Positions 11,016 through 22,239 of a stretch of 30,752 nucleotides of DNA are shown here, one piece after another; within the stretch, counting starts at the first letter, position 1; the number at the start of each line of letters is the position of its first letter. Source of the stretch: Escherichia coli. Lineage in GTDB: Bacteria; Pseudomonadota; Gammaproteobacteria; Enterobacterales; Enterobacteriaceae. The position numbers and the translations under genes were made by a program. The DNA is taken from the NCBI RefSeq assembly GCF_003334315.1, contig NZ_QOWR01000055.1. One strand, 5' to 3'. The notes below the pieces were generated by a model. The model made no database searches, was not told where the DNA came from, and saw only the letters and a list, made by a program, of their open reading frames with translations.

Positions 11016-11566
11016 AATAAAGAAAACCTTTTAACGCCAAAACAAAAAAGTATTTCGTCGCGTAGTGTAAGCGATCACTTATTATATTTCCACAAAATTT
11101 AATCTATTTACAGTCCTGCGCGAGATTATTTCAGCTGTTATTTTCTGAAACTCTCAGAATAATTTCAAGATTATATATTAGCCATTTTGATGAGTAATTT
11201 AGATTATTGGTGAACAGAACGGCGCTCTCTGCTCGCTAATTCCGCAAGCCTGACAAAACCGAAGTGAATAAAAATGCAATATAACAGAATAAAAGAAAAC
11301 ACCCCTCACTGGTGCTTTCTGCTGTTAATGTACATTTTCTGGCATAAAAAATACTGTAAATGACACGGTCACGACATACACCGAATTCTCTACGCTTATA
11401 GCGTTACCTCACCCCCAAACTTTCATTAGTGAAATTAAAGGAAAGGTCATATCTAATTGATTTAATTGAAAATAAATCATATCGGCATGTAAAAATCCAC
11501 AATGTACAAAAAACGAGCCGTTACGGAATATTTTATCTACAAAAACTGACTAAATAAAAATTTTTC

Positions 11567-11580
11567 ACTAATTGATTAGT
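11567..11580. promoter_or_regulatory. Perfect 14-bp palindrome ACTAATTGATTAGT about 100 bp upstream of alaE; candidate operator
   Basis: Seen directly in sequence inside the 667-bp AT-rich stpA-alaE intergenic region. Function is inferred only. Confidence 0.3.
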
Positions 11581-11682
11581 CATAGCCAGCGATATACGCT
11601 ATGCGAAAATGCAGATGGCAATGAGATCCACTGTTTTCATCTCCATTAACATCCCATTACGCTTTTATTAAGGAGCATTAGC

Positions 11683-12132
11683 ATGTTCTCACCGCAGTCA
11701 CGCTTGCGTCATGCAGTTGCAGATACGTTCGCGATGGTTGTTTACTGTTCTGTCGTGAACATGTGTATTGAAGTTTTCCTCTCCGGAATGAGCTTCGAAC
11801 AGTCTTTTTATTCCAGATTGGTAGCGATTCCGGTGAACATCTTAATTGCATGGCCATACGGTATGTACCGTGATCTGTTTATGCGCGCGGCACGCAAAGT
11901 TAGCCCGTCGGGCTGGATAAAAAATCTGGCGGATATCCTGGCTTATGTGACGTTCCAGTCACCGGTGTATGTGGCGATCTTGTTAGTGGTGGGCGCAGAC
12001 TGGCATCAGATTATGGCGGCGGTCAGTTCAAACATCGTTGTTTCGATGTTGATGGGGGCGGTTTATGGCTACTTCCTCGATTATTGCCGCCGACTGTTTA
12101 AAGTCAGCCGTTACCAGCAGGTAAAAGCCTGA
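11683..12132 (+). CDS. alaE: L-alanine exporter AlaE (YgaW)
   Basis: 149-aa ORF, membrane protein; RBS aaggag 6 bp upstream of ATG. Confidence 0.9.
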
Positions 12133-19647: not shown

Positions 19648-20640
19648 ATGCGACATAGCGTACTTTTTGCGACAGCGTTTGCCACGCTTATCTCTACACA
19701 AACTTTTGCTGCCGATCTGCCGGGCAAAGGCATTACTGTTAATCCAGTTCAGAGCACCATCACTGAAGAAACCTTCCAGACGCTGCTGGTCAGTCGTGCG
19801 CTGGAGAAATTAGGTTATACCGTCAACAAACCCAGCGAAGTAGATTACAACGTTGGCTACACCTCGCTTGCTTCCGGCGATGCAACCTTCACCGCCGTGA
19901 ACTGGACGCCACTGCATGACAACATGTACGAAGCTGCCGGTGGCGATAAGAAATTTTATCGTGAAGGGGTATTTGTTAACGGCGCGGCACAGGGTTACCT
20001 GATCGATAAGAAAACCGCCGACCAGTACAAAATCACCAACATCGCACAACTGAAAGATCCGAAGATCGCCAAACTGTTCGATACCAACGGCGACGGAAAA
20101 GCGGATTTAACCGGTTGTAACCCTGGCTGGGGCTGCGAAGGTGCGATCAACCACCAGCTTGCCGCGTATGAACTGACCCATACCGTGACGCATAATCAGG
20201 GGAACTACGCGGCGATGATGGCCGACACCATCAGTCGCTACAAAGAGGGCAAACCGGTGTTTTACTACACCTGGACGCCGTACTGGGTGAGTAATGAGCT
20301 GAAGCCAGGGAAAGATGTGGTCTGGTTGCAGGTGCCGTTCTCCGCACTGCCGGGCGATAAAAACGCCGATACCAAACTGCCGAATGGTGCGAATTATGGC
20401 TTCCCGGTCAGCACCATGCATATCGTTGCCAACAAAGCCTGGGCCGAGAAAAACCCGGCAGCAGCGAAACTGTTTGCCATTATGCAGTTGCCAGTGGCAG
20501 ATATTAACGCCCAGAACGCCATTATGCATGACGGCAAAGCCTCAGAAGGCGATATTCAGGGACACGTTGATGGTTGGATCAAAGCCCACCAGCAGCAGTT
20601 CGATGGCTGGGTGAATGAGGCGCTGGCAGCGCAGAAGTAA
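19648..20640 (+). CDS. proX: Glycine betaine/proline ABC transporter periplasmic binding protein ProX
   Basis: ORF 19606..20640; ATG at 19648 ([21 protein letters not shown]...) gives 330 aa with a signal peptide. Confidence 0.94.
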
Positions 20641-20650
20641 TTTTTATTCG

Positions 20651-20840
20651 GGCGGATAAGGCGTTTTTACCTCATCCGCCGCTCTGTACACAATGCCTGA
20701 TGCGACGCTGGAGCGTCTTATCATGCCTACAAAATACACTCATTCCGTATGGCGGATAAGGCGTTTTCGCCGCATCCGTCGTTCTGTGCACAATGCCTGA
20801 TGCGACGCTGGCGCGTCTTATCATGCCTACAAACCACATC
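20651..20840. repeat. Two tandem about 100-bp BIME/REP units downstream of proX
   Basis: Unit 1 starts at 20651 and unit 2 at 20751 (ggcggataaggcgtttt...gcacaatgcctgatgcgacgctggngcgtcttatcatgcctacaaa), near-identical with a few substitutions; contain REP-like palindromic cores. Confidence 0.7.
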
Positions 20841-20931: not shown

Positions 20932-22116
20932 ATGACTAAACCTAATCATGAGCTTAGCCCGGCGCTGATCGTGCTGATGTCTATCGCCACCGGTCTGGCG
21001 GTAGCCAGTAACTATTACGCCCAGCCATTGCTCGACACCATCGCGCGTAACTTTTCCCTTTCCGCCAGTTCGGCAGGCTTTATTGTTACCGCCGCGCAGT
21101 TGGGCTATGCCGCAGGTCTACTGTTTCTTGTTCCCCTCGGTGATATGTTTGAACGCCGCCGCCTGATTGTCTCGATGACCTTACTGGCGGCATGCGGCAT
21201 GTTGATTACCGCCAGCAGTCAGTCGCTGGCGATGATGATCCTCGGTACGGCATTAACCGGTTTATTCTCAGTCGTGGCACAAATTCTGGTTCCGCTGGCA
21301 GCGACGCTGGCTTCACCGGATAAACGCGGCAAAGTGGTTGGCACTATTATGAGCGGTCTGCTGTTGGGGATCTTGCTGGCACGGACAGTTGCCGGATTGC
21401 TGGCGAATCTCGGCGGCTGGCGCACCGTCTTTTGGGTTGCTTCGGTGTTAATGGCACTGATGGCGCTGGCATTATGGCGTGGTCTGCCACAAATGAAATC
21501 AGAAACCCACCTCAACTACCCACAGTTGTTGGGTTCCGTTTTCAGTATGTTTATCAGCGATAAAATTCTGCGTACCCGCGCGTTGCTGGGCTGCCTGACC
21601 TTTGCCAATTTCAGCATTCTCTGGACCTCAATGGCCTTTTTGCTTGCCGCTCCACCTTTTAACTACAGCGATGGTGTCATTGGTCTGTTTGGACTTGCGG
21701 GAGCTGCCGGAGCGTTGGGCGCTCGTCCGGCGGGCGGTTTTGCCGATAAGGGCAAATCGCACCACACCACAACTTTCGGTCTGCTGCTGCTATTACTTTC
21801 ATGGCTGGCGATCTGGTTTGGTCACACTTCCGTACTGGCGTTGATTATCGGAATCCTGGTGCTGGATCTCACCGTGCAGGGCGTGCATATCACTAACCAG
21901 ACGGTAATTTATCGGATACATCCTGATGCGCGCAATCGCCTGACCGCAGGTTACATGACTAGCTACTTTATTGGCGGTGCCGCCGGTTCGCTAATTTCAG
22001 CCTCAGCCTGGCAACATGGCGGTTGGGCTGGCGTTTGTCTGGCTGGCGCGACGATTGCCCTGGTTAACTTACTGGTCTGGTGGCGAGGTTTTCATCGTCA
22101 GGAAGCCGCAAATTAA
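20932..22116 (+). CDS. ygaY: MFS-family transporter YgaY, apparently intact (394 aa)
   Basis: Uninterrupted 394-aa ORF with about 12 hydrophobic segments, located between proX and ygaZ. Confidence 0.8.
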   Translation: MTKPNHELSPALIVLMSIATGLAVASNYYAQPLLDTIARNFSLSASSAGFIVTAAQLGYAAGLLFLVPLGDMFERRRLIVSMTLLAACGMLITASSQSLAMMILGTALTGLFSVVAQILVPLAATLASPDKRGKVVGTIMSGLLLGILLARTVAGLLANLGGWRTVFWVASVLMALMALALWRGLPQMKSETHLNYPQLLGSVFSMFISDKILRTRALLGCLTFANFSILWTSMAFLLAAPPFNYSDGVIGLFGLAGAAGALGARPAGGFADKGKSHHTTTFGLLLLLLSWLAIWFGHTSVLALIIGILVLDLTVQGVHITNQTVIYRIHPDARNRLTAGYMTSYFIGGAAGSLISASAWQHGGWAGVCLAGATIALVNLLVWWRGFHRQEAAN

Positions 22117-22239
22117 GCAATCAGCAACCGTTTTCGTGGCTTTACACTTATAAGGGTGTTAAGAAGCCCATCAGTCTGATAAGGTTAAGATATTCATTCA
22201 GTCTATTTATAATATTAACAATCGTTAAGCGTACACTCT

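Follow-up and report, generated by a model that had tools for sequence, protein, structure and literature searches.

An intact ygaY allele in a non-K-12 lineage of Escherichia coli and the 7-bp repeat unit missing from its K-12 counterpart

The DNA analysed here, a stretch of 30,752 nucleotides from Escherichia coli (referred to below as the window), most probably carries ygaY in its ordinary, intact state. This core gene of the enterobacteria is predicted to specify a secondary transporter of the major facilitator superfamily (MFS), and the ygaY pseudogene of K-12 would have been derived from exactly the haplotype of the window by the loss of one 7-bp unit. The probability of this reading is put at roughly 0.93. 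That ygaY is a pseudogene in K-12 is already known and is textbook matter, and the intact allele is the normal form in nearly all E. coli. What is added here is small: a precise description of the lesion, the origin of its repeat in a Gly88Cys substitution, and counts of the various alleles in the population.

The reading frame at 20932..22116 on the plus strand starts with ATG, specifies 394 amino acids followed by a stop codon and, in the ORF list with its translation, has zero internal stops. It is a real gene and not a chance ORF. A PGAP-annotated CDS named "MFS transporter" (WP_000165680.1) has the same coordinates as the window ORF in the strains CP53 and Z1323PEC0011, the DNA of which is 100 % identical to the window across the ygaY CDS, with the same start and the same stop; matches of the translated product to Pfam models, presented below, agree with this annotation. 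The gene is flanked by proX (19648..20640) and ygaZ (22240..22977), which matches the position of ygaY (b2681) in MG1655, and it is located inside the nrdHIEF-proVWX-ygaY-ygaZH-mprA-emrAB region, as is expected from the synteny of this orthologue group. The window is collinear with the 2787.6-2818.1 kb segment of MG1655, and near-identical isolates are annotated in the same way. Sequence identity leads to the same assignment: the window gene differs from that of MG1655 by 0 substitutions and one 7-bp indel and is 100 % identical to the CDS of CP53.

The NC_000913.3 annotation gives ygaY as a 1178-bp pseudogene (2808316..2809493), compared to 1185 bp in the window, and the PGAP note on the K-12 allele reads "frameshifted". 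A global alignment of the two sequences revealed no substitutions at the 1178 common positions and a single 7-bp gap at gene positions 256-262. The local sequence is CTG-GCGGCAT-GCGGCAT-GTTG in the window and CTG-GCGGCAT-GTTG in MG1655. As was seen from the alignment and by using junction probes, the window thus carries a perfect 7-bp tandem repeat, GCGGCAT-GCGGCAT, at 21187..21200 (+) in codons 86-90 (A-A-C-G-M), and its frame is open. The one GCGGCAT unit that is kept in MG1655 results in a frameshift and in a TGA stop after codon 88. Frame 0 of MG1655 ends in ...LLAAC*, and the remaining 305 codons, counted from the original M90, can only be read in another frame. The lesion is located just past a loop resembling MFS motif A and within predicted TM3, in the hydrophobic stretch 78-96. 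Any in-frame product of the K-12 allele would be a stub of 88 residues, comprising two and a half helices at most. The sequence-only reading that preceded this analysis had noted an uninterrupted 394-aa ORF of the MFS type in the window and had taken ygaY of MG1655 to be a disrupted pseudogene. Both statements were confirmed, the first by the ORF itself, by two MFS_1 matches and by the coordinates of WP_000165680.1, the second by the annotation of b2681 and by the 7-bp loss. The pairwise alignment that it had proposed was carried out and places one 7-bp lesion in MG1655, so the opposite outcome, an identical intact ORF in MG1655, does not apply.

The idea that the K-12 locus might still operate as a split gene was considered. 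The ATG of M90 overlaps the K-12 stop codon (GC-ATG-TTGA), and products of 88 and 305 amino acids could conceivably reassemble. Such a reassembly is unlikely because the break would fall in the interior of predicted TM3 and not in a loop. The old split naming "(ygaXY)" is still used in the literature (PMC3946193).

Identity between the window and MG1655 amounts to 98.99 % in the first 20.6 kb and to 99.69 % in the last 10 kb of the window, compared to approximately 100 % for many natural isolates, which came from dogs, humans, calves, and seawater. Judged by these identities, the window belongs to a non-K-12 lineage. Around ygaY, it has the same haplotype as MG1655: zero substitutions were observed in window positions 21001-27000, and nearby the two sequences differ only by the 7-bp indel and by one additional REP/BIME unit, of 100 bp, between proX and ygaY in the window.

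Elsewhere in the window, the density of SNPs relative to MG1655 is mosaic, as would be expected from recombination tracts: 17-43 SNPs per kb were counted in the glaH-lhgD-gabD region (1001-6000) and 18 in the kilobase 11001-12000, against 0-4 in most of the remaining kilobases. Positions 1-95 are unmatched in MG1655 and in the near-identical strain Z1323PEC0011; they represent the end of an IS1 inserted in a ygaQ-like alpha-amylase gene, and the same junction is also present in some natural isolates such as 19SZHZ869Rt. The 3' part of this alpha-amylase-family gene, which is a pseudogene in MG1655 (b4462), extends over 96-1170. The PGAP annotation of a natural isolate that closely resembles the window also gives the gene as "frameshifted; internal stop" and, unlike ygaY, it is therefore broken beyond K-12. 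The MicA sRNA and two minus-strand tRNA matches (window 27425-27496 and 30410-30752) were found at the expected positions; the tRNA matches lie where MG1655 has its tRNA-Arg genes.

The distribution of the alleles was determined with junction probes on all 5426 complete E. coli genomes, using a 28-base megablast seed that was forced to cross the junction. The one-copy (K-12) junction was detected with a 43-mer probe in 353 of the 5426 genomes, each time with at least 99 % identity. The 60 carriers checked by name, evenly spaced among these 353, were all K-12 laboratory derivatives; named carriers include MG1655, BW25113, C600, MC4100, JM109, TG1, J53, S17-1, and EPI300. The two-copy Cys88 junction of the window type was obtained in 791 genomes at an identity of at least 90 % and a coverage of at least 80 %, with the flanks of the window in 685 and with another right flank in 104. 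Two further groups of alleles carry glycine at codon 88, namely GGCGGCA-GGCGGCA together with its GCA GCA GGC GGC variant (2105 genomes) and GCA GCG GGC GGT (2146 genomes). In all, codons 86-90 could be classified in 5395 of the 5426 genomes. The one-copy deletion was found on none of the alternative-flank backgrounds among the 5426 genomes, although the one-copy probe could seed there. A probe for three copies of GCGGCAT detected no expansion allele in the same set: it matched the same 791 genomes as split 50-nt alignments, and these do not represent a three-copy allele since the two-copy probe had detected every one of them at the identity and coverage given above.

The disruption of ygaY is thus restricted to K-12, and the 7-bp deletion apparently happened once, in the K-12 lineage, and is not a recurrent switch, as the one-copy form is confined to K-12 and a three-copy form is lacking. 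The suggestion, made before any database comparison, that the disruption of the reference is strain-specific holds, with 353 carriers in 5426 genomes and every sampled one a K-12 derivative. So does the suggestion that the window comes from a lineage with a functional allele: a non-K-12 lineage is indicated by the identities presented above, and "functional" is to be taken in the sense suggested by purifying selection and conservation. A phase-variable contingency locus was also considered as an explanation of the repeat, and it was rejected: the one-copy form occurs in K-12 only, three copies are absent among the 5426 genomes, and the recurrent, reversible changes in repeat number among related isolates that characterize such loci are not seen in ygaY. 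Errors in sequencing or assembly can arise at a G+C-rich repeat with a 7-bp indel, and one of the two sequences might for that reason be an artefact. With 353 independent K-12 assemblies carrying one copy and 791 independent assemblies carrying two, this explanation is effectively refuted and its probability is negligible.

The repeat is perfect because codon 88 (21193..21195, +) is TGC and specifies cysteine; only TGC alleles have the perfect repeat. As was seen from the comparison of alleles and from the protein alignment, GCGGCAT-GCGGCAT is completed by a derived base, the T at 21193. Glycine, encoded by GGC or GGT, is the state at this position in most E. coli, and the protein alignment shows Gly88 also in E. 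fergusonii, E. marmotae, E. albertii, Citrobacter, and Shigella flexneri, from which it follows that Cys88 is derived within E. coli. Two or more divergent backgrounds of ygaY carry it, as the TGC codon is shared by EC5654, which differs from the window by 37 nt. One Salmonella orthologue also has Cys88, and the residue is therefore evidently tolerated. In the proposed order of events, a G-to-T substitution (GGC to TGC, Gly88Cys) in a subset of E. coli would first have made the 7-bp repeat perfect; K-12 would later have dropped one GCGGCAT unit, most probably by replication slippage, a mechanism suggested by the structure of the repeat.

A Gly88 allele with GGCGGCA twice could equally give the K-12 sequence in one step; in combination with the K-12-type right flank, this allele was found in no genome of the 5426 probed. 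The same collapse opens the way to the reverse history, in which a K-12-like one-copy pseudogene came first, from the Gly88 allele with GGCGGCA twice, and a later duplication of GCGGCAT restored the frame in the window lineage, leaving Cys88 as its scar. The sequences allow for this: the EH41-type CT-GGCGGCA-GGCGGCA-TG collapses exactly to the K-12 sequence, duplication of GCGGCAT in K-12 yields exactly the window sequence, and the window and K-12 are without substitutions over approximately 6 kb here. Two rare indels are nevertheless needed where one G-to-T substitution suffices. The distribution of the alleles is also against it, as the two-copy Cys88 form is carried by 791 natural genomes, including the EC5654 haplotype at a distance of 37 nt, while the one-copy allele is limited to laboratory derivatives of K-12, and the Cys88 of the Salmonella orthologue makes an origin of this residue through indels unnecessary. 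A restored pseudogene is for these reasons very improbable, and the substitution followed by loss of a unit in K-12 is preferred.

The intact gene is widely conserved. The ygaY CDS was found in 5419 of the 5426 genomes and covered for at least 80 % in 5414. In a spread of 60 matches, the four from K-12 have a length of 1178 bp and 55 of the 56 from non-K-12 strains one of exactly 1185 bp; the one left over, from the isolate PCP06021, is reduced to 158 bp. Integrity of the ORF was established by direct comparison of six non-K-12 alleles, all of which are open, and by span length for approximately 55 more, out of the 5414. The six alleles show 30-48 nucleotide differences and 1-4 amino acid differences, with dN/dS values of 0.009-0.052, which points to strong purifying selection. 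The ygaY protein shares 97-98 % identity with its orthologues from E. fergusonii and E. marmotae, 96 % with that from E. albertii and 93 % with those from Citrobacter and Salmonella, and the nrdEF-proVWX-ygaY-mprA-emrAB context is retained in the latter two genera.

Several variants of the gene and its surroundings were encountered in the course of these comparisons. In a Salmonella contig (L012 7186-7681), mprA-emrAB follows directly after ygaY, without ygaZH (AzlC/AzlD), whereas E. coli and Citrobacter have ygaZH. An E. coli protein of 396 amino acids (P0006) carries an in-frame Ser-Ala duplication (SLI-SA-SASAWQ), aligned to residues 355-358 of the window protein, which corresponds to a 6-bp tandem duplication at a second short-repeat site in ygaY. 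A relative of 596 amino acids (P0001), encoded on a 5.4-kb ENA contig, aligned with 1089 bits, which is above the score of the query with itself, at 73 % identity; this suggests an internal duplication, a fusion, or an assembly artefact. An independent natural loss was observed in PCP06021, an E. coli from seawater of the Galapagos, which lacks ygaZ and in which only the first 158 bp of ygaY are left, fused to a truncated ygaH (L016 2501-2963).

The spacer between proX and ygaY contains two REP/BIME-type units of approximately 100 bp each (20651..20838, +), which were found by repeat search and with Rfam. The units, at 20651-20738 and 20751-20838, are 90 % alike, and both are matched by the Rfam family naRNA4 (RF02564), at 20650-20727 and 20750-20827. 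MG1655 has one unit, the difference being a 100-bp indel at 20669-20768. The number of REP/BIME copies differs among strains, as is seen from matches that start at 1, 52, or 141. A consensus scan revealed no sigma-70 consensus promoter in this spacer, and no obvious Shine-Dalgarno sequence was found upstream of the ATG of ygaY. In the spacer between ygaY and ygaZ, the same type of scan gave a sigma-70-type promoter, TTAAGA-17-TATAAT (22185..22213, +), which serves the downstream ygaZH and not ygaY; these hexamers have been given as the constitutive promoter of ygaZH (PMC3946193).

The lack of a consensus promoter and of a strong ribosome-binding site upstream bears on the question whether the intact ORF is also a working gene. 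In the lineage of the window, it might be silent, or its product might be crippled by Cys88 in TM3. In line with this, K-12 is viable without ygaY, deletion of the gene has been employed as a neutral control in published work, the natural isolate PCP06021 has lost most of it, and no function has been described in the literature found. Such an idle gene is difficult to reconcile with dN/dS values of 0.01-0.05 among its alleles, with its presence in 5419 of 5426 genomes, and with syntenic orthologues in other genera that are 93-98 % identical. Moreover, ygaY transcripts are detectable in a derivative of K-12 and increase after hyperosmotic shock, and Cys88 occurs in 791 natural genomes as well as in an orthologue from Salmonella. 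An intact ORF without a working gene is hence considered quite improbable, and we infer that the intact ygaY protein is expressed and active.

The transcript data come from work on the chromatin of proVWX, in which the increase upon hyperosmotic shock in the K-12 derivative amounted to 11-fold at the proX-proximal amplicon in an stpA mutant. As ygaY is located directly 3' of proX in Escherichia, Citrobacter, and Salmonella, as no promoter of its own was detected and as its transcript rises after shock, the protein could be a transporter linked to osmotic stress that works together with ProVWX, for instance in the release or recapture of a compatible solute or of some related metabolite. This is a speculative proposal with a low likelihood. 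If it is true, ygaY has been missed by all functional genomics based on K-12, the laboratory strain lacking it.

In the literature found, ygaY is treated as a pseudogene or a cryptic gene of K-12, and the proVWX chromatin work refers to it as "cryptic", with in-frame stops. The locus is a standard site for chromosomal integration in the metabolic engineering of W3110 and K-12. A search of the literature for a catalogue of K-12 pseudogenes that are intact elsewhere gave nothing relevant, and no assignment of a function or of a substrate to ygaY was present in the literature found. The gene is one for which K-12 misrepresents the species, being core and strongly constrained elsewhere. Owing to the null allele of K-12, Keio-type screens cannot detect it, and by the same logic integration at the ygaY locus would not be neutral in strains that have an intact gene. 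One such strain is B95.deltaA, a derivative of E. coli B, in which the ygaY CDS has its full 1185 bp.

The translated product of the window gene is matched in both halves by Pfam MFS_1 (PF07690), with E = 8.5e-32 for residues 17-273 and 3.2e-11 for residues 218-385, and it also matches Sugar_tr and MFS_4. On the basis of these profile matches, the predicted placement in the major facilitator superfamily is secure at the level of the fold family. A Kyte-Doolittle scan, which is crude, gave 11 hydropathy peaks, some of them overlapping, and missed weakly hydrophobic helices, the superfamily being characterized by twelve transmembrane helices in a 6+6 arrangement; one peak is located at residues 78-96. 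In MFS proteins, motif A, with the consensus G-x-x-x-D-R/K-x-G-R-R/K, belongs to the loop between TM2 and TM3. A putative cytoplasmic TM2-TM3 loop resembling this motif was recognized by eye in the translation at residues 67-80, VPLGDMFERRRLIV (21130..21171, +). Within residues 67-78, VPLGDMFERRRL, the motif A residues D71, R75, and R76 are present and both glycines are absent, in a comparison by eye with this consensus.

A scan of the protein against NCBIfam gave 27 weak MFS matches, all of which are far under the curated cut-offs, so that neither a subfamily nor a substrate can be assigned. Among the weak similarities, those that are best over the full length point to exporters, namely SotB-type sugar efflux proteins, Cmx/CmrA, Bcr/CflA, and EmrD, with PRK03545 as the best full-length match. 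A sequence search of the PDB yielded remote MFS matches alone (GlcP, EmrD, Qdr2, and SotB), with E values from 6e-9 to 6e-4. The product of ygaY would be a proton-coupled carrier, and export is slightly favoured over import.

Four comparisons with known systems place these results. The DHA1-type exporters with 12 transmembrane helices (SotB/YdeA, Cmx/CmrA, Bcr/CflA, and EmrD) have the best profile and PDB similarity to ygaY, over residues ~11-390, and resemble it in size and in the two-half MFS_1 architecture. The scores of ygaY are, however, too low for membership by the curated NCBIfam/TIGRFAM cut-offs, with 64 vs 401 bits for PRK03545 and 52 vs 200.9 for Bcr/CflA, and neither a substrate nor a direction of transport can be transferred from these exporters. 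With slipped-strand contingency loci, ygaY has in common that the loss of one short perfect tandem unit within the CDS shifts the frame; it differs from them in having two units only and in showing no recurrent switching. The ygaY gene of MG1655 (b2681, once split into ygaX/b2680 and ygaY/b2681) occupies the same proX-ygaZ locus as that of the window and is identical to it over the shared positions; it has one repeat unit and is frameshifted after codon 88, whereas the window has two units and a single ORF of 394 amino acids. WP_000165680.1 of the natural E. coli strains CP53 and Z1323PEC0011 is the same allele as that of the window, with nothing detectably different between them.
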